Source: an uncultured delta proteobacterium (GTDB lineage: Bacteria > Desulfobacterota > Binatia > Binatales > Binataceae). Taken from it: DNA of 64,000 nt. Of the stretch, positions 38,619-64,000 are shown piece by piece (the stretch's first letter is position 1; the number at the start of each line of letters is the position of its first letter). Below the pieces are notes generated by a model. The model was not told the DNA's origin. It saw nothing but the letters and a program-made list of their open reading frames with translations, and did not search any database. Both the position numbers and the translations under genes were made by a program. Where the stretch lies: positions 1,088,001 through 1,152,000 of the forward strand of contig CAVQEQ010000003.1 of the NCBI GenBank assembly GCA_963711565.1, written 5' to 3'.

Positions 38619-39497
38619 TTAAGTTCCTCTCTTGAGCGCGCGCTCCTTCGCGGCGCGCTTCGCGCGATTGGGGTCACCGGACCAGGTCCAGGCGTGCTCG
38701 GTGCGGCTGACGCCTACCAGCACGCCCAAGAACGCCGACGGGTGGATGAACAATTCGGCGAGACCGGCCTCGTCTTTGTGATGCGCCGCGAAACGCGCGC
38801 CGCGCGCTTGCAGGCGATTCTCGAGAGCACCGACGTCGTCGGTCTCGACGAAAAACATGTACAGCGAGTCGCCGCGGCGTTGATGGAACCGGCCCATCGC
38901 GAGGTTCGCGTCGGTGATTTGCGCGATCTCGATTCTGTCCAGGCGCGCGGGAGGATCGAACAGAGTGAGCGTGCCGGTGTAGCCGAACTGCTTGCTCTCA
39001 ATCGGGCTGAACTTCGCCACGTCGAGGACGAAGATGCGCGCGTAGCGGTCGGATGCCGCTTTCCAATCGCCGACGACGTTAGTGACTTCGTAGGCCCACT
39101 TGATCGCGCCGGCGGGTGCGCGCTCGTGATGCTGCGAGATGACGGTGCGCATCCCAAACGTCGCGCCGGGGTCGAGATACAGTTGTCCCGCGGATTGCTC
39201 GAAGCTGACGCCGCACTTCGCGAGATGATGCGCGGCAGCGTCGGGATCGTCCACCGAGAATCCCGCGCCGAATAATCCGCTGCCCCATTTCGAGACGAAA
39301 TCCTGGACCGCGCCGGTGCCGTCCGGTTCCAGAATCTCGATGAGGCTCGACCCGGCTTGCATCGTGGATCGCTTGGCGACGAGCGGCGTCGCCTTGTCGC
39401 GACGCACAAGTTCCCCGCCGAAGACTTCCGCGACGACCTTCTCGGCCGCACCGCTGTCGGCGACCGCTATCTGAACTCTGTCAACGCGTTTCAGCAT
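38619..39497 (-). CDS. Tandem VOC/glyoxalase-like protein
   Basis: RVDRVQIAV, IEILEP, GDSLYM, FIHPSAFLGVLV. Confidence 0.78.
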   Translation of the reverse strand: MLKRVDRVQIAVADSGAAEKVVAEVFGGELVRRDKATPLVAKRSTMQAGSSLIEILEPDGTGAVQDFVSKWGSGLFGAGFSVDDPDAAAHHLAKCGVSFEQSAGQLYLDPGATFGMRTVISQHHERAPAGAIKWAYEVTNVVGDWKAASDRYARIFVLDVAKFSPIESKQFGYTGTLTLFDPPARLDRIEIAQITDANLAMGRFHQRRGDSLYMFFVETDDVGALENRLQARGARFAAHHKDEAGLAELFIHPSAFLGVLVGVSRTEHAWTWSGDPNRAKRAAKERALKRGT

Positions 39498-39516
39498 CGT
39501 CGATCCTTCCTCGCGG

Positions 39517-39930
39517 CTACTGGAGTGGCGGCTCGTCGTCGGGCGGCGCGATCACCGGCGACCCATGATGCATCACCATGAACCACGCGTTGCCGACGCG
39601 CTCGAACACATTGGTGGCGAGCACATTCGAGCGCTGCGTACCTTCGTAGCCTCGCTGCGTGAGGTTTTCCTCGACCACGACGATCGCGAGGTCGCCGCTG
39701 ATCATCACCTCGAGCTCGCCGAGCTCGAACTTCATCTCGAACACGTTGTCGAGGATGCGCTCCCAGCTCGACATGATCGGACCCCATCCGGAAAGTTTGC
39801 GCCATCCGGGATGGATACAAATGATGCGCGGGTCTTTCAGCCAGACCGCTTCCATCTTTTCCGCGTCAAGACTCTCGAACGCGTCGTAGAAAGCGCGGTT
39901 CGCAGCGAGCACTGATTCACGATCTGACAT
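39517..39930 (-). CDS. SnoaL-like/NTF2 family protein
   Basis: ANRAFYDAF, CIHPG, ATNVF, HHGS. Confidence 0.85.
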   Translation of the reverse strand: MSDRESVLAANRAFYDAFESLDAEKMEAVWLKDPRIICIHPGWRKLSGWGPIMSSWERILDNVFEMKFELGELEVMISGDLAIVVVEENLTQRGYEGTQRSNVLATNVFERVGNAWFMVMHHGSPVIAPPDDEPPLQ

Positions 39931-39981
39931 CAGATTTTACAGCGTAGTTTTTCCGATAAGCAGGCGCCAGCGGCGGTGGTG

Positions 39982-40788
39982 TCATGACGGTGGCGACGAT
40001 TTTTGCGCCAGCGCCGCGCCGGAGGCCTGGAATCGGATTGCGTCGTCGATCAGCGTCGCGATTTTGCGCGCGGCTTCCGCTATCGGAATGCCGCCGCGGT
40101 GGATGTTCGAGATGACGGTGCGGTCGGGCTCGATCGATTTGAGCGTGGGGCGATAGATCACGTACGCACTCAGGCTCTCGGCGGTGACGAGGCCCGGGCG
40201 CTCGCCGACGATCATGCAGATGACGTTGGGGCGCAGGATTTCGCCGAGATGGTCTTCGATTCGGACGCGGGCGTTGCGGATGAAGATCGGCGTCAGGAGG
40301 CGGTAGCGCGGCGCGAGCATCTTCGTAAGTGCGCGCAGGAGAGGCGCCGCGTTTTTCTCGACCGCGGCCGACGAGAGGCCGTCGCCGACGCATACCAGGA
40401 CGGTGGGAGTCGGAGATTTGGTGCGGCCGCCTCGGAACCTAACCCCTAACCCCTTCCCGCGCGGGAAGGGGGACCGGTGTAATGGAGGTTTGATGCGCGC
40501 GACCCGGGCCGCGTCGGCGTCGGTGAGACGGCGGCCGCGCTCGGGATAGCGGATGTAATCCTCGCGCGTGAGTGCTTGCGAATGAATTTCGAGCAGGCCG
40601 TTGCGCCGCGGCCAGTCGTGCGCGACTTCGGTCATCACCGCATCGACGGCGCGCGCGTGATCGGCGCGCAGCGAGAGCATCGCTGCCGTGGTGTAGCGCG
40701 TGCCAGCGCGTCCGAGGCCGAGCCGCGCGGGAGTGGACTTGCGCATTGCGTCAAAATCGGTGTTCGCGTCGGGATCGATCTTTTTCAA
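39982..40788 (-). CDS. eutC: Ethanolamine ammonia-lyase small subunit, with an in-frame repeat insertion
   Basis: TPARLGLGRAG, DHARAVDAV, DGLS, GERPGL, RTVISNIH; TTG start overlaps the eutB stop. Confidence 0.9.
   Translation of the reverse strand: MKKIDPDANTDFDAMRKSTPARLGLGRAGTRYTTAAMLSLRADHARAVDAVMTEVAHDWPRRNGLLEIHSQALTREDYIRYPERGRRLTDADAARVARIKPPLHRSPFPRGKGLGVRFRGGRTKSPTPTVLVCVGDGLSSAAVEKNAAPLLRALTKMLAPRYRLLTPIFIRNARVRIEDHLGEILRPNVICMIVGERPGLVTAESLSAYVIYRPTLKSIEPDRTVISNIHRGGIPIAEAARKIATLIDDAIRFQASGAALAQKSSPPS
40434..40477. repeat. Family C palindrome inside the eutC coding sequence
   Basis: ggaacctaacccctaaccccttcccgcgcgggaagggggaccgg, read as RSPFPRGKGLGVRF. Confidence 0.8.
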
Positions 40789-42155
40789 TGCGAGTCCATC
40801 ACGATTCGTGCGTCGCCGGCGCGCGGTGTGAGATGGCCGTCGCGCAGGATGCCGCGACGCTCGCACCATTCCTCGAACTCGGGCGCGGGGCGCAGATTGA
40901 GTACCGCGCGCAGCGCCGCGGCGTCGTGGTAGCTGGTCGATTGATAGGAGAGCATCACGTCGTCGCCCATCGGCACCGCCATGAAGTAGTTGCATCCGGC
41001 GGACGCGAGCAGCACCGCGAGATTCTCGCAATCGTTCTGATCGGCGCGCGCGTGATTGGTGTAGCATGCGTCGGCGCCGTGCGGAACGCCGAGCAGCTTG
41101 CCCATCAGGTGATCCTCAAGGCCGGCGCGCGTGATCTGTTTCGCATCATATAGATACTCAGGCCCAATGAATCCAACGACGGTGTTGACGAGCAGCGGCG
41201 AGTAGCGGCGCGCCAGGCCGTAGCATCGCGCCTCGAGCGTGACCTGATCGGCGCCCTCGTGCGCGCCGGCGGACAGCTCCGAGCCCTGCCCGGTCTCGAA
41301 GTACATCAGATTGGGTGAACGCAGGCGGCCAGTCTCGCGAATCATCGCGTAGCCGTCATCGAGCATCGCGACCGTGATGCCGAAACCGGCGTTGCCCTTC
41401 TCAGTACCGGCGAGACTTTGAAACATGATGTCCATCGGCGCGCCGGCTTCAAGCGCGCGCATCTGGGTCGTGATATGGCCGAGCACGCAGTTCTGCGTCG
41501 GCACGCCGGTGCGATCGATAATGCCGGCGGTGAGTTCGAGCAGGCGGCGGATGTTGTCGGGCTCGTCGATGCACGGGTTGATGCCGATCAGCGCGTCGCC
41601 GGTCGCGTAGGCGAGGCCTTCGTAGGTAGCGGCGGCGATGCCGGTGAGATCGTCGCGCGGATGGTTGGGCTGCAGGCGCGTCGAGAGGCGGCCGGGAAGA
41701 CCAAGCGTGGTGCGCGCGTGAGTGACGACGCGAATCTTCGACGCGATCGCGATCAAGTCGAGATTGGTGCATAGCTTGGCGACCGCGGCGGCAATCTCGG
41801 CGGTGATGCCGCGACCGGCCGCGAGGATCGCGTCGCCGGTCGTCGCGTCGTCGAGCAGCCATTCGCGAAACTCGCCGACGGTATTGTTGCGCACGTTGGC
41901 GAAGGCGTCGCGGTCGAGCGCGTCGTCGATGACGCGCGTCACCTCGTCGCGATCGTAGGCGACGACCGGATGCTCGCGCAGATCGTTCAGCGTGAGATTG
42001 GCGAGCACGGTCTTGGCGGCGATGCGTTCCTGCTCGGAGCGCGCCGCGATACCGGCGAGTTCGTCGCCCGAGCGCGCTTCGTTGGCGCGCGCGAGCAGTT
42101 CCTTCACCGAGCGAAACCGATACGAAGTGCCGAGCAGTCGAGTCGAGAGTTTCAT
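40785..42155 (-). CDS. eutB: Ethanolamine ammonia-lyase large subunit (AdoCbl-dependent)
   Basis: RSGDELAG, RLQPNHP, GDALIGINP, YFETGQGS, VNTVVGFIGPEY, GDDVML.YQ. Confidence 0.96.
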   Translation of the reverse strand: MKLSTRLLGTSYRFRSVKELLARANEARSGDELAGIAARSEQERIAAKTVLANLTLNDLREHPVVAYDRDEVTRVIDDALDRDAFANVRNNTVGEFREWLLDDATTGDAILAAGRGITAEIAAAVAKLCTNLDLIAIASKIRVVTHARTTLGLPGRLSTRLQPNHPRDDLTGIAAATYEGLAYATGDALIGINPCIDEPDNIRRLLELTAGIIDRTGVPTQNCVLGHITTQMRALEAGAPMDIMFQSLAGTEKGNAGFGITVAMLDDGYAMIRETGRLRSPNLMYFETGQGSELSAGAHEGADQVTLEARCYGLARRYSPLLVNTVVGFIGPEYLYDAKQITRAGLEDHLMGKLLGVPHGADACYTNHARADQNDCENLAVLLASAGCNYFMAVPMGDDVMLSYQSTSYHDAAALRAVLNLRPAPEFEEWCERRGILRDGHLTPRAGDARIVMDSH

Positions 42156-42174
42156 TCCAGCTTTTGAAGCACCA

Positions 42175-42543
42175 TCATGCGGCAAAGTGAAAAACGCGGA
42201 CGCTGCTGATCAGTGCGTCGCGCCATTCGATCAGCTCGAGCACGTGCACCGGCTTTGCGTCGAGGTTCGAATGGAGGCGGTACTCGACTGCCGCGCGATC
42301 GCCGGATTCGGTGACGGTGAGGATCTCGAAACGCAGTTCGCGATAGCGCTCGAGGCCGCGACGCGCATACACGGCGATTTCATGATGGCCATTCAGCTCG
42401 AGCCTGCCGAGTTCGGGATAGATTTTCGCGATAAGCGCGCTCTGATGAGTCGCGTCGCGAGTGTAGAGCGCGACGACGCGGGCCGGATCGCGGCTTTCCC
42501 ACGCGGATTTCCATGCTTCGACGCGGGCGCTCGATGTGGGCAT
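42175..42543 (-). CDS. SnoaL-like/NTF2 family protein
   Basis: WKSAWESRD...LY..DA pattern; directly upstream of eutB. Confidence 0.75.
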   Translation of the reverse strand: MPTSSARVEAWKSAWESRDPARVVALYTRDATHQSALIAKIYPELGRLELNGHHEIAVYARRGLERYRELRFEILTVTESGDRAAVEYRLHSNLDAKPVHVLELIEWRDALISSVRVFHFAA

Positions 42544-52197: not shown

Positions 52198-52266
52198 CAT
52201 GCGCGAACCACACGATGACTGATGCTCATTTTTGTCGCTCCGTCTGCTAAGCTCGTCCACCGAAAA

Positions 52267-55200
52267 GTGCATCCGCTCGAAACCTATCTTCGCGATTTGT
52301 CTGAGGCGCACGCCGCCGGCGTTCCTGAGACGACCCATTATCCCGCACTGCGGGCGCTGCTCAACGAAATCGGCGGCACGCTCAAGCCGAAAGTGCGATG
52401 CGTCATAAATCCAAAGAGCAAGGGTGCAGGAATTCCCGACGGCGGGCTCTATACCCCTGATCAATTGCCAAAGGGCGGCGACCCGGAACCGCCGCTCGGG
52501 ACGCTGCCTGCGCGCGGAGCGATCGAGGCGAAATCAACCACGGACGATGCGTTCGCCGTCGCAAAGTCGGAACAGGTCGAAAAATACCTCAAGCTTTACC
52601 GCCAAGTGCTGGTCACCAACCTGCGCGATTTTGTCCTGATCGCATTGGATGGTGACGGTGGCCCGCGAATTCTTGAAAGCTACAAGCTCGCCGTCGATGA
52701 GGAATCGTTCTGGAGTGCGGCTGCGCATCCGCAGGCGATGGCGAAGCGAGAGGGAGATCGTTTCGCCGATTTCATCCGGCGCGTAATGCTCCATCCGGCG
52801 CCACTGGCTTCTCCCAAAAACGTCGCATGGTTTCTTGCGTCGTATGCGCGCGAGGCGCGCTGGCGAATCGAGAACCATCCGATACCTGCGCTGGCTGCAT
52901 TGCGCGAGGCGCTCGAACAAGGGCTTGGGCTCAAGTTCGAAGGCCCGGAAGGCGAACATTTCTTCCGCTCCACGCTGGTCCAGACGCTCTTCTATGGCGC
53001 GTTTGCGGCGTGGGTTTTGTGGAGCAAGGAGCATCCGTTTTCCGACCTCAGGGTAAAGTTCAACTGGAAGCTCGCCGGCGACCATCTTCATGTCCCGATT
53101 GTCGGGGTGCTGTTTCATCAACTGATCGAACCGTCGCAACTGAAGGCGCTTGGAATCGACGAAGTCCTGGATTGGGCCGGCGACGTGCTCAACCGTGTGG
53201 ATCGGGGGGCGTTCTTCAAAGCTTTCGAGGAGGAGCATGCGGTCCAGTATTTCTACGAACCATTTCTGGAAGCGTATGATCCTGCGCTGCGCAAACAGCT
53301 CGGAGTCTGGTACACGCCGCCTGAGATCGTGACCTACATGGTTGAGCGAGTCGATTCCGTTTTGCGCTCTGAACTCCATATCGCGGACGGGCTCGCAGAT
53401 CCGCGCGTGGTCGTACTCGATCCGTGCTGTGGAACGGGCAGCTACGTGGTCGAAGTGTTGCGGCGGATAGAAAAAACGCTGATCGAGAAGGGCAAGACTG
53501 CGCTGACGGCGAACGCGGTCAAAAAAGCTTCGATAGAACGCGTCTTCGGTTTCGAAATCATGCCCGCGCCGTACGTGATCTCGCATCTGCAAGTCGGAAT
53601 TGCTTTGCAGCAAATCGGCGCACCTCTATCTGAAGATGCGAACGAACGCGCGGCGGTCTATCTGACGAACTCGCTCACTGGCTGGGAGCCGCCGAAAGGT
53701 CCGAAGCAACACATAGTCGCGTTTCCGCAGTTGGAGCAGGAGCGCGACGCCGCCGAAGAGGTGAAACGGACCAAGCCGATCATCGTGATTCTGGGCAACC
53801 CGCCTTACAACGCTTTTGCGGGCGTCAGTCCAGCCGAAGAGATGGGTTTGGTCGAGCCGTACAAGGAAGGACTCGTCGCGGAGTGGAAGATCAAGAAGTT
53901 CAATCTCGACGATCTATACGTCCGATTCTTTCGGATCGCGGAGAGAAGAATCACAGAGGGCAAAACAGGCACTGGCATCGTCGCGTTCATTTCTAACTTT
54001 TCCTACATCGAGGATGCTTCGTTCGTAGTGATGCGGCAGCGGTTGATCTCGGAGTTCGACCGAATCTGGATCGACTGTATGAACGGCGACAGCCGCGAGA
54101 CCGGCAAATTGACTCCTGATGGAAAGCCCGATCCAAGCGTGTTCTCGACCGAATATAACCATGAGGGAATTCGAGTCGGCACGGCGGTAGCAGTGATGGC
54201 CCGCGCGGAATCGAACGCAAAGCGGGCAAGCGTCGGCTTCCGTGAATTTTGGGGCACGTCGAAGCGCCAGGACTTGATCGATTCATTGAACGCTAAACAT
54301 TTTGATGCACGATATGAACCCGCAAACCCCGAGAAGTCCAACCGCTATTCGTTCAGACCCTCAAAGTCGTCGAAGCAGTATTCGAGCTGGCCGAAAATCG
54401 TCGAGTTATGCGCGATGCCACCGGTAAATGGTCTAATGGAGAAGCGCGGAGGCGCGCTCATCAATATTGATCGAGCTAAGCTGGCAGAGCGCATGCACGC
54501 GTACTTCAATCCGAAGCTCGATTGGACCGAGTACTCGGCGCTCGGTTATGGCCTAGTCGAGGAGCAGGCGGGATTTGATCCGAAGACCGCGCGTCGGAAG
54601 GCTCTTGAAAGTGAGGTGTACGACGCGGAGCGGATTGTTCGCTACGCGATAAGACCATTCGACACAAGATGGTGCTATTACACTGCGGTGCCTCCGATTT
54701 GGAATCGGGCGAGGCCGCAGCTATGGGCTCAAAACCACAATGGGAACGAGTTCCTGATCACCCGCCCGGCGGGCGTTGCATCGCCCGAAGGAGTTCCGTT
54801 CCATTTCACGCGCTGCTTGGGTGACAATGATTTGCTCCGCGGCCATGCCTATTACACTCCGACGACATTGAAGGGACCGATATCCAGGAAAAACCTCAGT
54901 TCGCTCGGCAAATCATATTTAGAGAAAATCGAGCTCCCATCGCCAAAAGACGATCTTCTATTGTCGCACTCTCTAGCGGTCGGATACGCGCCGTCATATT
55001 TGTCGGAAAACGCTGACGGCATACGAGGAGACTGGCCGAGAATCCCACTGCCGGACTCCAAAGACGCACTCATCCGCTCCGCAGAACTCGGCCGTCAGAT
55101 CGCGGCCCTGCTCGACACTGAAAATTCGGTTGCGGGAGTTACGGCAGGTGCGATCCGTCCCGAACTGAAAGAAATCGCCGTTATCTGGAGCGACGGAGGC

Positions 55201-55668
55201 GGCTCTCTTGAGCCAGCGAAGGGACACCTGGCCTTGAGGGCGGGATGGGGTCATGCCAGCAAGGAAGGGGCCGTAATGCCAGGTAAGGGTCTCGCGAAGG
55301 TACGCGACTACAGGAAGTCCGAGCTAACTGCATTAGAGGAAGGCGCCAAGAAACTCGGCGTGTCGCCCATTGAACTGCTGACGCCGCTTGGCGTGCAGAC
55401 GATGGACATCCATTTGAACAACGTCGCGTACTGGAAGAACATCCCGGCGCGGGTCTGGGAATACACGATCGGCGGCTATCAGGTGATCAAAAAGTGGCTA
55501 AGCTACCGCGAGCGCGACCTGCTCGGCCGCGACTTGAGTACCGATGAGGTTGACGAGGTTACCGCGATGGCCCGGCGCATCGCGGCGATTGTATTGCTCG
55601 AGCCGTCGCTCGACGCGAATTACGCAAGCATAAAGTCCGCCACCTACGATTGGCCTTCAGGCAGCTAA
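52267..55668 (+). CDS. Single-chain restriction-modification enzyme (nuclease + m6A MTase + type ISP-like specificity domain, no helicase)
   Basis: IPDG...IEAK, FYEPFL.AYD, GVWYTP, LDPCCGTG, GNPPY, C-terminal YTIGGYQVIKKWL. Confidence 0.88.
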   Translation: MHPLETYLRDLSEAHAAGVPETTHYPALRALLNEIGGTLKPKVRCVINPKSKGAGIPDGGLYTPDQLPKGGDPEPPLGTLPARGAIEAKSTTDDAFAVAKSEQVEKYLKLYRQVLVTNLRDFVLIALDGDGGPRILESYKLAVDEESFWSAAAHPQAMAKREGDRFADFIRRVMLHPAPLASPKNVAWFLASYAREARWRIENHPIPALAALREALEQGLGLKFEGPEGEHFFRSTLVQTLFYGAFAAWVLWSKEHPFSDLRVKFNWKLAGDHLHVPIVGVLFHQLIEPSQLKALGIDEVLDWAGDVLNRVDRGAFFKAFEEEHAVQYFYEPFLEAYDPALRKQLGVWYTPPEIVTYMVERVDSVLRSELHIADGLADPRVVVLDPCCGTGSYVVEVLRRIEKTLIEKGKTALTANAVKKASIERVFGFEIMPAPYVISHLQVGIALQQIGAPLSEDANERAAVYLTNSLTGWEPPKGPKQHIVAFPQLEQERDAAEEVKRTKPIIVILGNPPYNAFAGVSPAEEMGLVEPYKEGLVAEWKIKKFNLDDLYVRFFRIAERRITEGKTGTGIVAFISNFSYIEDASFVVMRQRLISEFDRIWIDCMNGDSRETGKLTPDGKPDPSVFSTEYNHEGIRVGTAVAVMARAESNAKRASVGFREFWGTSKRQDLIDSLNAKHFDARYEPANPEKSNRYSFRPSKSSKQYSSWPKIVELCAMPPVNGLMEKRGGALINIDRAKLAERMHAYFNPKLDWTEYSALGYGLVEEQAGFDPKTARRKALESEVYDAERIVRYAIRPFDTRWCYYTAVPPIWNRARPQLWAQNHNGNEFLITRPAGVASPEGVPFHFTRCLGDNDLLRGHAYYTPTTLKGPISRKNLSSLGKSYLEKIELPSPKDDLLLSHSLAVGYAPSYLSENADGIRGDWPRIPLPDSKDALIRSAELGRQIAALLDTENSVAGVTAGAIRPELKEIAVIWSDGGGSLEPAKGHLALRAGWGHASKEGAVMPGKGLAKVRDYRKSELTALEEGAKKLGVSPIELLTPLGVQTMDIHLNNVAYWKNIPARVWEYTIGGYQVIKKWLSYRERDLLGRDLSTDEVDEVTAMARRIAAIVLLEPSLDANYASIKSATYDWPSGS

Positions 55669-60755: not shown

Positions 60756-61106
60756 ATGAAGAAAATCCGTTTCTTTTGGAAATCGACATGCACGACTTGC
60801 CGCGACGCAAGAAACTTCCTGCGCAATGACGTGGGCGCCGCCCTCGACGAACGCGACTACGCGAAGATCCCTCTGCGCGAATCCGAACTGAAGGATCTGT
60901 TCGCCGGCCGCGACCCGCGCGATTACCTAAACCCGCGCAGTCCGGCTTTCAAGGCGATGGGTCTGGAGGGCAAATCGCTGACACCCGAACAGGCGTTGGC
61001 CCTGATGGCAAAGGAACCGAATCTAATCAAGCGCCCAATCGTAGTCGTCGGCAAAGAAATGATCGCCGGCTTCGACCGCGAACGGCTGCGCTCTGCACTG
61101 AAGTAG
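60756..61106 (+). CDS. ArsC/Spx family protein
   Basis: CTTC, PNLIKRP, GF. Confidence 0.88.
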   Translation: MKKIRFFWKSTCTTCRDARNFLRNDVGAALDERDYAKIPLRESELKDLFAGRDPRDYLNPRSPAFKAMGLEGKSLTPEQALALMAKEPNLIKRPIVVVGKEMIAGFDRERLRSALK

Positions 61107-61239
61107 CCACCGCTGAGAGCAGACAGTATGTACTGCCGTCGTTCGGAGAGGTTGACTCGACTGAGCACTACAGGGCCGGACTCACACCCGATCTCGGCTT
61201 GCGCTAGAATAGTCACGACCTTAGAGGGCAAAAACTGCG

Positions 61240-63054
61240 ATGGACAACACGAGTTCGGAACAGCGGATTGGCGACTATCGGTTGCTGTCAAAGATTGGCG
61301 AGGGCAAATCAGGCGTGGTGCACCTAGCAACGCCCGCAGTCACCAAGCCGTTCGCGGTTCCCGGACAGCCGGTCGCTCTCAAGATCTATCGTCCTGAAAT
61401 TCTACACGAACCGAATCAAGTGGACCGGATCGAGAATGAGGCGCGGGTCGGGCAGGAGATCGCGCACCCCAACGTCGCGAGAATCTACGAGCACGAGATA
61501 CTAAGAAATGCCACTTCCAAGGAGATCGACCAGGCATTCTTAGTGATGGAGTACGTGGACGGAATAACACTTCACAAGTGGCTCTCGATGTTTCATCGGA
61601 TTTCCGACCGCTTGTTGCTGAGGATATTTCGCCAACTGGTCGATGGCACCAACGCGCTACACGAAAAAGGCGTGATCCATCGGGACATCAAGCCCACGAA
61701 CATCCTCGTCTCTTCGACTTTCCAGGCGAAAATTACCGACTTCGGCGTGGTTAAGGTTAAAGACACGCCGCCTGGCGGGAGCACTCCGGAAGACAAGTTC
61801 CTCGGCACAATACGCAACGCGTCACCCGAACTTCTTTTTGGAGAAAAGTTCGATCATCGCGCCGACCTCTATTCACTTGGAACTGTATTGTTCGCGCTGC
61901 TTCATGGCGTTGAGATTTTCGCCGCAGAGAATCAGTTCGCTCGACTCATTGAACTCAAGAAACATCAAGATCCGGAGTTCGATACGGCATTCGCCGGCAA
62001 GCCGATCCGCAGTAGGCTTGCGGCTCTCGCGAAGAAGTTATTGAGTCGCGACCCAATGGAGCGGCCCGAATCGGCCCAAGCCGTCCAGCAGGAAATCGCG
62101 GAGATTGAAAAACTTATGCCCACGGGTGAGGACGAGCCCGAGCCCCTCCATGGTTACATCGCCACGGCATTGACCGGATTGGGTCCAGACGTACGCGAGG
62201 CCATAGTTTTCGCTTCACATTCCATCGTGGCAGAGTGTAAGGAACACGAGCTCTACGTATATCAGCCTCGACTAGCGTCCGATCCCGTCTCTCATTCAGA
62301 CGTGAGCGCCGAGGAGGTTTATCGATTGGATCGGGGTCGAGTGGTCGCGGCCGATGTCCTTTTCGTGTTGGCCAATCAGCCTAGTCTCGGGGTCGGACAG
62401 GAGATTGAGATCGCTTCAAGCTATGGCAAGCCGACGATATTGATAGCGCGTGAAGGAGTCACGGTTTCCCGGATGACCAAGGGTAGCTATGCGAACTTGA
62501 TCGGTGAGATCACTTACGCCTCGCCCGAGGATCTTCACAAAAAACTCGGAGAGCTGCTGCGGACCAACATCGGAAGGCTGCGTTCACTCAGGGCGGGTCT
62601 CAATGTCCGCGCCGTGACGCCACTTGCCGATCGATTTTCAGAGGCTCGGAAGGCCGCAGGCTATTCGCTGGCAGAGGCTGCGATGAAGTGTGGAATTTCT
62701 CAGGCACTCTTGCGCGCGATCGAGAACGGGCAGAATGATAATTTCGGAATCGTGATCATCAACAAGCTGTGCGTTCTATATGGCATTTCTGTAGACGAGC
62801 TCCTGAAGACCGAGCCGGTCAGGGCGAAGCCTACAGGACCTGATCCGAACGTGCGCCGGTTGGAGAGCGTTGCACGACGCTTAAGCTGGCCGACCACGGA
62901 TCTTCTTGAGCTTCGCGATGAATATTCCGCAGAGCTAGCGGCTTCGGGTGCTCACACAGACATCTCTGAGGAAGAGTGGGAACAACGGCACGCTGCATCA
63001 CAGAAGCAGAAGCTCAAAGAAGCAACTCATCAAAAGAAATTCGAGGGTTTTTGA
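61240..63054 (+). CDS. Fusion: Hanks-type Ser/Thr kinase + nucleoside 2-deoxyribosyltransferase-like domain + XRE HTH
   Basis: Kinase: GEGKSG, VALK, HRDIKPTN, DFG, SPE, DLYSLG. NDT: YIATA..YQP..D...AADV..SLGVGQEI..A...KP. HTH: ARKAAGYSLAEAA..CGIS....IENG...LYGISVDELL. Confidence 0.85.
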   Translation: MDNTSSEQRIGDYRLLSKIGEGKSGVVHLATPAVTKPFAVPGQPVALKIYRPEILHEPNQVDRIENEARVGQEIAHPNVARIYEHEILRNATSKEIDQAFLVMEYVDGITLHKWLSMFHRISDRLLLRIFRQLVDGTNALHEKGVIHRDIKPTNILVSSTFQAKITDFGVVKVKDTPPGGSTPEDKFLGTIRNASPELLFGEKFDHRADLYSLGTVLFALLHGVEIFAAENQFARLIELKKHQDPEFDTAFAGKPIRSRLAALAKKLLSRDPMERPESAQAVQQEIAEIEKLMPTGEDEPEPLHGYIATALTGLGPDVREAIVFASHSIVAECKEHELYVYQPRLASDPVSHSDVSAEEVYRLDRGRVVAADVLFVLANQPSLGVGQEIEIASSYGKPTILIAREGVTVSRMTKGSYANLIGEITYASPEDLHKKLGELLRTNIGRLRSLRAGLNVRAVTPLADRFSEARKAAGYSLAEAAMKCGISQALLRAIENGQNDNFGIVIINKLCVLYGISVDELLKTEPVRAKPTGPDPNVRRLESVARRLSWPTTDLLELRDEYSAELAASGAHTDISEEEWEQRHAASQKQKLKEATHQKKFEGF

Positions 63055-63878
63055 TCGTGGACGCAACTCACCGTCGCTTCGAGACGCTATTCGACAGCAT
63101 CCGCCATCGTCGAGGCAGTTGGCGAGCCACGGTTGCTGAGAAACTGCGAATGGTTAGACTTGCTGTCCAAGAGGCTGGATGCGGAGCGGTCCCTACAGAT
63201 CTTACGCGTCTCGCTCGGCACCTTCGCGTTGTGAAAATTACCGAAAGATCGCTCACGATGCGCGGGCGCATCCTTCGCTCCGAGCTGGGTTACGAGATCC
63301 AGATAAACGAGGAACTACCGGATACATCGAAACGCGACGTTCTCGCGCACGAGCTTTCTCATCTGGTTGTCGAGGATAGAAGTATTGCGACTTCGAACAG
63401 GCTCAATCGCGAGCGCAGTGATTTCGCTTCCTCCTACGGCTCCGTTGAGAAACTATGCGACGAATGCGCGTTCGAGATACTGTTGCCACTTGGCTGGCTG
63501 CGCGATAGGTTGCGCGGCACTCGACCGTCCGCCGAGGTCTTGCGTAACATCGCAGAGGCTGCGGGATGCAGTGTCGAATACGCAGCCAAGCGGATATGGA
63601 CCGAGGCACTGTGGGATTGCAGATTTTCGGTTTGGCAGAGCGCAGGGGATAGAACATTTGCGTTGCGGTCCTACCCGCCCGAGCCGGCTGAGACGCTCGC
63701 GTCATGGGCTCTTGAGTTAGCTGCTAAATCCGCCCCGTCCTCGCTGTCCCCGCATGGCAATCAGAGCCTTCGTGAGATCTCTGCGCGATTCGAATGTATG
63801 GGCGTTCGACGCACCGTGGCTTGTCTTGTGGAAGAATCAACGGTTTTGGTCGTTGACCTAGGCAAATCAAAGCCTTAA
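63051..63878 (+). CDS. ImmA/IrrE family Zn metallopeptidase
   Basis: I.INE, AHELSH (HExxH), EKLCDECAFEILLP, then an HTH-like segment; TTG overlaps the kinase stop (alternative GTG 63057). Confidence 0.82.
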   Translation: MIVDATHRRFETLFDSIRHRRGSWRATVAEKLRMVRLAVQEAGCGAVPTDLTRLARHLRVVKITERSLTMRGRILRSELGYEIQINEELPDTSKRDVLAHELSHLVVEDRSIATSNRLNRERSDFASSYGSVEKLCDECAFEILLPLGWLRDRLRGTRPSAEVLRNIAEAAGCSVEYAAKRIWTEALWDCRFSVWQSAGDRTFALRSYPPEPAETLASWALELAAKSAPSSLSPHGNQSLREISARFECMGVRRTVACLVEESTVLVVDLGKSKP

Positions 63879-63962
63879 CCCGGAGCGTGCTTCAGCATCG
63901 TGCGCGCGCGTGCAATAGCCTGTGCGCGATGCTATTTCCTGAGTCAGGCGAGGTGTTTCTTC

Positions 63963-64000
63963 ATGCCATTCTCTGACGATCTCTTTTTCGCTCCCGCTCA
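63963..64000 (+). CDS. Start of a further gene, truncated by the window edge
   Basis: GAGGTG RBS, then MPFSDDLFFAPA. Confidence 0.5.
   Translation, partial: MPFSDDLFFAPA

Follow-up and report, generated by a model that had tools for sequence, protein, structure and literature searches.

Layout of the locus and its insertion site

Close to the right-hand end of the analysed window (the whole 64,000-nucleotide stretch of DNA) lies a two-gene cassette, a repressor-type fusion protein with an adjacent protease, that is spread over unrelated bacteria. Gene 1 (61240..63054, + strand) encodes a 604-aa protein composed of a kinase, a nucleoside 2-deoxyribosyltransferase (NDT)-like domain, an XRE helix–turn–helix (HTH) and a C-terminal domain (CTD), defined by its open reading frame, Pfam and a structure model (pLDDT 84, pTM 0.76); the kinase–NDT–HTH fusion of the original prediction is borne out by Pfam and PDB profile matches, and its catalytic sites are intact. 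Gene 2 (63057..63878, +) encodes a 273-aa IrrE/CapP-like M78 zinc metalloprotease. The fusion stop had been thought to overlap the protease start, which it most likely does not: the likely start is the GTG at 63057, 2 nt past the fusion TGA (homologues begin M-D at the same spacing), and an upstream in-frame GTG at 62976 is the only start that would overlap.

The cassette is bordered on the left by a host arsC/Spx-like gene (60756..61106, +; present in 44 of 47 genomes of the genus) and on the right by the start of a gene named from its sequence as a host amidase (63963..64000, +), both outside the system. The latter had been put forward as a possible third member; on retrieval, its host-like GC3 (0.78), its 88–94% identity in congeners and its position directly adjoining arsC in congeners that lack the cassette led us to reject it, and the cassette is therefore of two genes. 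Codon usage does shift past arsC, as originally noted, with a GC3 of 0.62 in the fusion gene and 0.58 in the protease gene vs 0.72–0.84 in the flanking host genes. Ahead of the cassette, a sigma-70-like promoter match (CTCACA-18-TAGAAT, 61181..61210, +) is by itself at chance level (2 matches seen vs 1.1 ± 1.2 in shuffles); by eye, similar −10 elements are found upstream of several homologues. An inverted-repeat scan of the 170 nt upstream of 20 genes returned no conserved operator palindrome.

At the arsC locus, 12 of 19 congeners have no insert and 6 hold an addiction-module antitoxin-like gene (a RelE/ParE toxin being confirmed at 1 of these 6). The ends of the insert carry no target-site duplication of at least 6 nt, and the two 20-kb regions examined contain no tRNA. 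The cassette is absent from 60 relatives, and within one myxobacterial family 3 of the 201 genomes carry it; phage records gave no match, plasmids two (HTH-only) and viral contigs a single stand-alone NDT relative. This patchy spread, the low GC3 and a slot that is empty or filled by addiction modules in congeners support horizontal acquisition. Soil-metagenome contigs from three studies carry the cassette at ≥ 99% identity (the best-matching sample may be the source sample), those of run X1 spanning both the arsC–fusion and fusion–protease–amidase junctions; no RNA data set is listed as containing the cassette.

Domains of the fusion protein

The N-terminal domain (residues 13–285; 61276..62094, +) is a Hanks Ser/Thr kinase of PknB-like fold (Pfam Pkinase, E 1.8e-42), and the fusion model superimposes on 1mru with Z 29.6 (rmsd 2.7, 260 aligned). 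Residues K48, E67, HRD 147–149, K151, N154 and D167 are intact in the window, HRDxKxxN is kept in 35/35 sequences, and the activation segment has a family-specific GTxRNxxP. The Stk2-type is a defence kinase with a Hanks kinase domain. PADLOC kinase models match residues 3–305 in a manner generic to the kinase fold, the PD-T4-6 models likewise matching the fold only (with none of the partner genes beside the cassette), and NCBIfam scores fall far below their cut-offs (MAD6 107.6 vs 460; PglW 58.6 vs 990). Together with the failure of any PADLOC model to match the middle domain (0/25 NDT rows), this agrees with the original view that the locus matches no named system.

The middle domain (residues 302–445; 62143..62574, +) resembles the nucleotide N-glycosidases DNPH1 and MilB, of NDT fold. 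Pfam Nuc_deoxyrib_tr alone is below its cut-off (residues 327–405, E 1.5e-4, 22.4 bits against 28.8), and the NDT-like assignment is upheld by PDB profile matches to Rcl/DNPH1 (E 2e-7), an NDT (3.4e-7) and MilB (2.8e-6) and by a predicted five-stranded α/β arrangement; fold searches using the whole-fusion model as query returned kinases alone. A putative triad of Y306, D364 and E388 and equivalents of the phosphate-binding serines (S382, S410) are present in the window, mapping onto DNPH1 Y24/D80/E104 and S98/S128′ (Y24 by position only). Over 161 rows, conservation is 154 for Y306, 157 for D364, 158 for S382, 161 for E388, 157 for S410 and 160 for M412, and all six are found in 47/47 kinase forms. 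The alternative that the NDT domain serves as a sensor only is thus disfavoured, the nucleophile E388 being present in every row. According to PMC10603095, a Tyr at the Y24 position favours deoxyribose, DNPH1 and MilB prefer hydroxymethyl-pyrimidine nucleotides, and DNPH1 is a non-toxic sanitiser of the nucleotide pool. No counterpart of the DNPH1/MilB base-recognition residues (H56/E55, R30) was matched in the window domain. The stand-alone relatives occur in dUTPase/thyA/dcd operons; the closest either have a dUTPase gene on one side and a thymidylate synthase gene on the other or carry a fused dCMP-deaminase-like domain. We conclude that the middle domain is a likely nucleotide N-glycosidase, predicted from its residues to be intact.

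The XRE HTH (residues 462–521; 62623..62802, +; Pfam HTH_3/HTH_31) has SinR and DdrO as its best solved relatives, and is followed by a conserved CTD of three predicted helices (residues about 535–595; 62842..63024, +), helices 1–2 of which align with the SinR oligomerisation region. Neither this domain nor the terminal motif described below had been remarked upon in the original prediction. Within it a conserved AA(S/K/R)G loop (residues 567–570; 62938..62949, +) is a candidate protease cut site by analogy with DdrO (cut at L106–R107) and CapH (F82–R83). A profile comparison of HTH–CTD and protease gave no similarity, and the Protein Atlas offered one 0.92 match, to an unnamed HTH cluster that provides no functional lead (and nothing usable for the protein upstream of locus L054).

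Long-tailed homologues end in a sliding-clamp-like QxxLF/QxxLxL motif in 24 of 60 cases (shuffle mean 2.9, max 11; host background 17/2321), vs 1 of 33 short-tailed members; one homologue (L016) ends in QPDLF, as do Phage Mu MuC/Mor. The heptapeptide at this position in the window (63031..63051, +) is atypical, with no match to the pattern, and overlaps the likely ribosome-binding site of the protease gene. Modelled with host DnaN, the tail scored 0.59 (best of three controls 0.01; at least 76% of contacts agreeing between runs, partner pLDDT at least 64), against a mark that 116 of 157 solved pairs and 2 of 215 mismatched ones attain, where scores of ≤ 0.60 belong to 18 of the 157 solved pairs and to both mismatches; this pass may come from likeness, because clamp–peptide complexes have already been solved. 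The motif is absent from the tails of other same-class XRE/M78 ORFs, a weak control in that few are separate XRE genes, and a search for an archaeal PIP-box switch was uninformative (2/401 genomes matched, one the seed genome). The modelling lends weak support to clamp binding by the tail in long-tailed members.

The partner protease and its association with the fusion

The downstream ORF matches Peptidase_M78 (E 3.8e-11) and a capP-like profile (6.9e-16), as expected of the HExxH ImmA/IrrE peptidase first proposed here, and its model has IrrE, PprI and CapP as top full-length matches (E 5e-9 to 2e-7 over 258–300 columns). The predicted fold is a three-domain peptidase–HTH–GAF-like arrangement (pLDDT 50–60 in the C-terminal part). 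H98, E99, H102 and E131, the HExxH and distal Glu, are kept in 18/18 proteases; the Cys of the cysteine switch is absent from the window protease. The ssDNA-binding Arg (IrrE R85/CapP R90, seven residues before HExxH) is replaced by Ser91 in the window, and is retained in 1/15 kinase-clade proteases vs 15/15 (as R/K) from kinase-less loci. The original supposition that the protease senses DNA damage is therefore doubtful for the kinase clade, at least by way of ssDNA, as judged from this residue.

Fusion and peptidase co-occur, as the original prediction would have it. An M78 gene lies downstream at 18/18 kinase-clade loci (counting loci in which 700 nt or more follow the NDT domain), at 18/20 kinase-less NDT–HTH loci and at 0/16 stand-alone (HTH-less) NDT loci; the two uncoupled kinase-less loci are IS-interrupted (L051) or catalytically degenerate and lacking the CTD (L056). 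The family core is therefore NDT–HTH plus protease, kinase-less forms being the commoner, and the kinase is an add-on of a single clade, whose counts are not independent because the clade represents one evolutionary event. Distances of NDT and protease correlate (Mantel r 0.66 for 29 pairs, 0.42 for 12 pairs), which shows co-inheritance only and was not counted as evidence of co-evolution.

Association with defence islands, the other expectation, holds weakly for the kinase form. By raw count, 1 of the 10 kinase-clade loci that have neighbours shows a clear defence neighbour (type II R-M, at L034), vs 4 of 15 loci without the kinase; most kinase-clade loci sit amid housekeeping genes. Kinase-less forms are bordered by genes of CD-NTase-like, type I R-M and HerA/DruA type, the first two adjoining L016 and L017. 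No third regulated gene or adjacent target operon is conserved beside the cassette.

A candidate protease-triggered switch and its relatives

The reading that we favour, and to which we attach an even chance, is of an autoregulated, protease-triggered cassette that carries its effectors inside the repressor, cleavage upon stress or infection likely leading to a block of growth or replication. The intact fusion would dimerise and repress its own promoter, given that no third regulated gene is conserved. Were the outputs instead host genes at a distance or defence operons alongside, as for CapH/CapP, the fusion could be purely a signalling regulator, its NDT domain binding or turning over a nucleotide signal that gates kinase and HTH and the protease resetting the system. 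Domains belonging to the TIR/DrHyd/SLOG class act as sensors, signal generators and effectors, CapH/CapP regulate adjacent operons, and L016 and L017 have suitable neighbours; we nonetheless consider this unlikely, as the full NDT catalytic set is kept, no adjacent target operon is conserved, and a cassette moving between phyla would hardly possess a fixed distant regulon.

In the protease-triggered switch, the terminal motif would dock long-tailed members on the replication sliding clamp, and the activated protease would then cleave in or close to the AA(S/K/R)G loop, so that the fusion loses its final helix and tail and binds DNA less strongly. Cleavage was originally envisaged as freeing the enzymes from the HTH; the DdrO/CapH analogy would place it within the CTD instead. 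The operon would be derepressed, allowing the cut kinase–NDT–HTH form to build up while the protease is still active. The polarity could be the reverse, with the intact fusion a toxin (for example, one that occupies the clamp and works at the fork) and a constitutive protease its antitoxin, such that shutoff of host synthesis releases toxicity. The addiction modules at the same site in 6/19 congeners fit such a scheme, as do proteases lacking the ssDNA-binding Arg (kinase clade) and also the cysteine switch (window), the lethality of clamp-binding MuC when overexpressed (PMC12867686) and the proposal of XRE–COG2856 pairs as toxin–antitoxin-like (PMC2701414). The characterised relatives IrrE, CapP and ImmA are inducible repressor-cleaving enzymes, and this counts against an addiction module, which we regard as very unlikely; loci where frameshifts or IS interrupt the fusion gene and the protease gene is kept (L011, L037, L044, L046, L051) do not discriminate.

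For the favoured switch, the accumulated NDT domain would hydrolyse a 2′-deoxynucleoside 5′-monophosphate, most likely of dUMP/dTMP type or a modified pyrimidine, and DNA synthesis by phage or host would be starved. Cleavage might rather induce an enzyme that resembles DNPH1, is non-toxic and breaks down damaged or modified dNMPs (e.g., hmdUMP, dUMP) near forks, protecting the cell or blocking only modified-base phages, with no killing. The substrate preference of DNPH1 and MilB, the operons of the stand-alone relatives, the housekeeping surroundings of the kinase clade and the control of DNA repair genes by IrrE/DdrO all lean that way; a sanitiser is rather unlikely in view of the very patchy spread, insertion at an addiction-module slot and the defence-type neighbours of kinase-less forms, and it leaves the kinase unexplained. 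Within the protease-triggered switch, the kinase could be a second effector or have taken over the trigger, its protease having lost the key ssDNA-binding arginine. Several observations weigh against that switch: DNPH1 is itself non-toxic, no operator palindrome was found, defence linkage is weak, the ssDNA Arg is lost, the window tail is atypical, and the gene order is co-oriented and repressor-first vs the divergent capH/capP.

A bolder and quite unlikely version is a replisome-anchored immune switch, its tail on the clamp, in which the kinase replaces ssDNA as protease trigger, cleavage frees a dNMP-destroying enzyme from fork and promoter, and the N-terminal module (kinase, second HTH or separate helical protein) is exchangeable; if so, one repressor would also be sensor and effector. 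Were the switch real, bacterial stress or phage defence would gain an enzyme of DNPH1 type, a trigger by regulated proteolysis and possibly clamp tethering. The two-gene unit is easily cloned and testable with clean catalytic mutants, and kinase-less (ssDNA arginine kept) vs kinase members (lost) offer a natural contrast for the rewiring of a protease to new signals. The literature, supplementary tables (which may list it) aside, yielded no description of this architecture.

Individual parts have recognisable counterparts. The motif of the homologues recalls Phage Mu MuC/Mor, transcription factors with a terminal clamp-binding motif, although those activate phage late genes and have neither enzyme domains nor a protease partner. 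PD-T4-6, MAD6 and CapK/CapS share a Hanks kinase with a possible defence role; the cassette scores below the PD-T4-6, MADS and BREX kinase families and lacks their partner genes, and CapK, activated by ssDNA, is a kinase that stands apart from the repressor on which it acts. DNPH1/Rcl and MilB have the same catalytic triad and phosphate-binding serines, but are stand-alone metabolic enzymes. Type VIII Thoeris ThsI, a CMP hydrolase with TPR, is likewise a MilB/DNPH1-like hydrolase and proposed nucleotide-depleting effector, triggered by TIR-made cADPR where the cassette has no TIR gene; the available portion of that text contains no protease, kinase or HTH terms (bioRxiv 2025.12.03.692087). The retron type II-A effector (Ec86 NDT–wHTH) also joins an NDT-fold enzyme to a DNA-binding domain, there in a defence setting, whereas the cassette HTH is XRE rather than winged and its active site DNPH1-like; no reverse transcriptase was seen among cassette neighbours. 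The XRE–COG2856 putative TA/three-component modules (Makarova 2009, PMC2701414) are similarly mobile, toxin-linked XRE and zincin pairs, their toxin being a separate RelE or PIN gene where the candidate toxin domains here lie within the XRE protein.

The closest parallel is with CapH/CapP, DdrO/IrrE (PprI) and ImmR/ImmA, where an XRE HTH with helical CTD again stands beside a three-domain M78 protease, HExxH…E intact. In contrast to these, the cassette repressor is fused to an N-glycosidase and a kinase and often ends in a clamp-like tail, the kinase clade has lost the ssDNA-binding Arg, and the window protease has no cysteine switch; capH/capP are moreover divergent and upstream of an immune operon, whereas the cassette genes are co-oriented with host genes on both sides. 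What IrrE/CapP-type proteases are known to switch on is an operon separate from the repressor gene; in this cassette the repressor itself houses the candidate effectors.

A fusion gene and its neighboring protease in an insertion slot

The fusion ORF (604 aa, 61240-63054, + strand) carries the predicted kinase (Pfam, residues 13-285) and XRE HTH (Pfam, residues 462-521). The Pfam match to the predicted nucleoside 2-deoxyribosyltransferase-like (NDT) domain between them is weak and below cut-off (residues 327-405, E 1.5e-4), but profile comparison, in which Rcl/DNPH1, an NDT and MilB are the best solved relatives, backs the assignment. Fold searches with a model show the kinase to be PknB-like, and in profile comparison the HTH and first two helices of the C-terminal domain (CTD) align with full-length SinR, with DdrO second. 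The ORF directly downstream (ending at 63878) matches Pfam Peptidase_M78, bearing out the predicted ImmA/IrrE peptidase, and its model resembles IrrE, PprI and CapP. The genes most likely do not overlap, contrary to what was first proposed: the most likely protease start, GTG 63057, sits 2 nt past the fusion stop, a spacing that is the same in homologues. A shift in codon usage is evident (GC3 0.62 in the fusion and 0.58 in the protease, versus 0.78 in the gene at 63963), and this last gene, formerly taken as a third member, is host-like in GC3 and reads as an amidase. Near-identical DNA to the cassette is present in soil contigs from three studies. At 52222-55668, 5.6 kb upstream, a gene of lower GC3 (0.67) encodes a 1148-aa N6 methyltransferase whose C-terminal specificity domain is of Type ISP.

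The non-kinase half of the fusion, searched in 60 relatives, found matches in five, at HTH level only. The left-hand neighbor, arsC, was found in 44/47 genomes of the genus; among the 19 best congener arsC loci retrieved, the amidase lies within ~300 nt in seven, lysR adjoins in five, six hold an XRE gene resembling an antitoxin, in some cases next to a RelE-type toxin, and one has another insert. The label “antitoxin” is our presumption for this XRE gene, which has no NCBIfam match; the one toxin tested matches TIGR02683. Since congener arsC loci hold antitoxin/toxin-like genes, the slot filled by the cassette is one that small selfish modules also use. The arsC-amidase junction (window 61107-63900; congener loci L074-L092) is an insertion hot spot in the genus, where addiction modules of the RelE/ParE type occur along with short palindromic repeats and further small genes. 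An integrase lies upstream of a cassette homologue at locus L037.

Family core and coupling to the protease

Fusion residues 298-604 recovered 25 proteins from 7996 scored candidates, 23 of them with a kinase domain. When 1.84 billion representatives were searched by profile, 231 matched at E <=1e-30 (some being multi-HTH proteins). The best 150 included 139 new proteins; 128 have the NDT domain and 18 of these a kinase. Across genomes and metagenomes, kinase-form loci include Betaproteobacteria, Pirellulales and Cyanobacteriota, and kinase-less loci Myxococcota, Planctomycetota and one Bathyarchaeote. Kinase forms make up one clade of the NDT tree (support 99/99, 21 rows) and most homologues lack the kinase; the family core is thus NDT-HTH-CTD, and ahead of it the sequences show either a kinase or a second HTH, or no further domain. 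Automatic JGI names of some members read “XRE HTH/nucleoside 2-deoxyribosyltransferase”.

In a third subfamily, a separate 400-460 aa gene lies directly upstream of the NDT-HTH and protease genes (L054:150-1430, L066:921-2309, L070:2198-3397); its products share ~20% mutual identity, match no PADLOC family and may be an alternative partner replacing the kinase. Five loci (L011, L037, L044, L046, L051) have a fusion gene broken by a frameshift, a truncation or an IS, and four of these keep an intact protease gene; assembly error is a possible cause of the breaks. One viral contig places an NDT relative beside a deaminase-like gene (L153:4941-5765).

Pairing with the protease, a check proposed in the original prediction, held for nearly all NDT-HTH loci that could be judged. 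Of 63 loci, nine ended too early for a call; an M78 gene comes next in 18/18 kinase-clade loci (three being identical copies, and two 5′-truncated and placed by similarity), 18/20 kinase-less NDT-HTH loci and 0/16 HTH-less NDT loci, using a profile built from 18 of the counted proteases; an independent Pfam M78 test matched 6/6 proteases, one slightly below cut-off. Of the two NDT-HTH loci that lack it, one is interrupted by an IS and the other is degenerate and has lost the CTD. Stand-alone relatives occur in operons for dUTPase, thymidylate synthase and dCTP deaminase, or carry a fused dCMP-deaminase-like domain. Among L019-L027, L060 and L026, 142-aa DNPH1-like genes in Anaerolineae lie between dUTPase and two thymidylate-synthase-like genes, and a Saccharibacteria record has a deaminase-NDT fusion inside a thyA-DHFR-dcd cluster, a possible uncharacterized pyrimidine pathway.

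Catalytic residues, the ssDNA arginine and a clamp-like tail

The available text of PMC10603095 describes DNPH1 as using Y24, D80 and E104 and as binding phosphate through S98 and S128′, and states that a Tyr at the first triad position favors deoxyribose. Between 154 and 161 of the 161 rows (duplicates included), and 47/47 kinase forms, retain the equivalent Y306, D364, E388, S382 and S410; HRDxKxxN is present in 35/35 full kinases.

CapP R90 and IrrE R85 bind ssDNA, and single CapP mutants retained some activity (PMC13228613, available text). Their position, seven residues ahead of the HExxH histidine, holds R/K in 15/15 kinase-less versus 1/15 kinase-clade proteases, six of the latter 15 being acidic there (five proteases were left unscored); 17/18 keep R179, a further basic residue. 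The loss is one evolutionary event and, given this together with the residual activity of the CapP mutants, the case for ssDNA sensing in the kinase clade is weakened, though such sensing may persist.

Many homologues end, beyond a variable linker, in QxxL[FL] or QxxLx[LF], a pattern defined after the first tails had been viewed and found in 31/62 distinct tails of that set versus 17/2321 host ORFs. A later set, sharing a few proteins with the earlier loci, has it in 25/93 tails (shuffles: mean 3.3, max 9), comprising 24/60 long and 1/33 short tails. In the available text of each source, a published clamp consensus agrees (bioRxiv 2026.05.27.728225) and the transcription factor MuC uses QPDLF for the clamp (PMC12867686). 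The tail of the window's fusion departs from this pattern. Its last 35 residues, folded with host DnaN, scored 0.59 (best control 0.01; agreement >=76%, partner pLDDT >=64), above a mark reached by 116/157 solved and 2/215 mismatched pairs, with 18 of the 157 solved and both mismatched pairs passing at <=0.60; the score may reflect likeness to solved clamp-peptide complexes, and the model lends weak support to DnaN binding. The kinase-less P0146 ends QxxLxxFF, PIP-box-like by what we take to be the consensus; were its host archaeal, this would point to a change of partner to PCNA.

Proposed mechanism and relation to known systems

A PADLOC scan of 111 neighbor proteins (heuristic gene calls, no background rate) gave a weak defense association for the kinase form: a clear defense neighbor was present at 1/10 kinase-clade loci (type II R-M, L034), against 4/15 loci of the kinase-less form (CD-NTase-like cyclase, type I R-M, HerA/DruA and MBL protein), and no NDT row matched a PADLOC model. 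The cyclase gene (PADLOC E 4.8e-97, L016:5458-6381) immediately follows the HTH-NDT-HTH and protease pair of a myxobacterium. The window's genome (G000) has two further M78 loci (G000:C4:about 38700-42200 and G000:C3:about 287400-297000), both adjoining genes whose translations read as ubiquitin-like, E2-like and E1-like; at one, XRE and M78 genes are divergent in the manner of CapH/CapP, and at the other an M78 domain is joined to a protein of 1133 aa.

We give an even chance to a protease-cut, autorepressing fusion. The intact protein would repress its own promoter; the protease would cut the CTD near an AA(S/K/R)G loop, which we take to resemble locally the DdrO cut region; and the derepressed, tail-less kinase-glycosidase would deplete a deoxynucleotide, arresting replication. 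Among the rival readings, an inducible sanitiser and a pure regulator are both unlikely, the second very slightly more so, and a protease acting as antitoxin is the least likely. We infer this cut site by analogy, since DdrO (L106-R107; PMC12828697) and CapH (F82-R83; bioRxiv 2022.04.27.489752) are, in the available text, both cut in the CTD.

The original prediction knew of no description of the architecture, and full-text literature searching, covering main text and few subscription papers, found none, nor did term look-ups in the available text of PMC9503650, bioRxiv 2026.10.19.760177, bioRxiv 2025.09.30.679545 and PMC2701414. Retron Ec86 and Thoeris type VIII supply examples of NDT-fold effectors, as far as the accessible sources describe them. 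The NDT-HTH-protease family is real, conserved and apparently undescribed, and would function as a variant of the protease-repressor kind. The cassette would work in the manner of CapH/CapP and DdrO/IrrE, as those are described in the available text (bioRxiv 2022.04.27.489752; PMC12828697), but differs from CapH/CapP in gene layout and in the ssDNA arginine, placing it outside that system in the strict sense.
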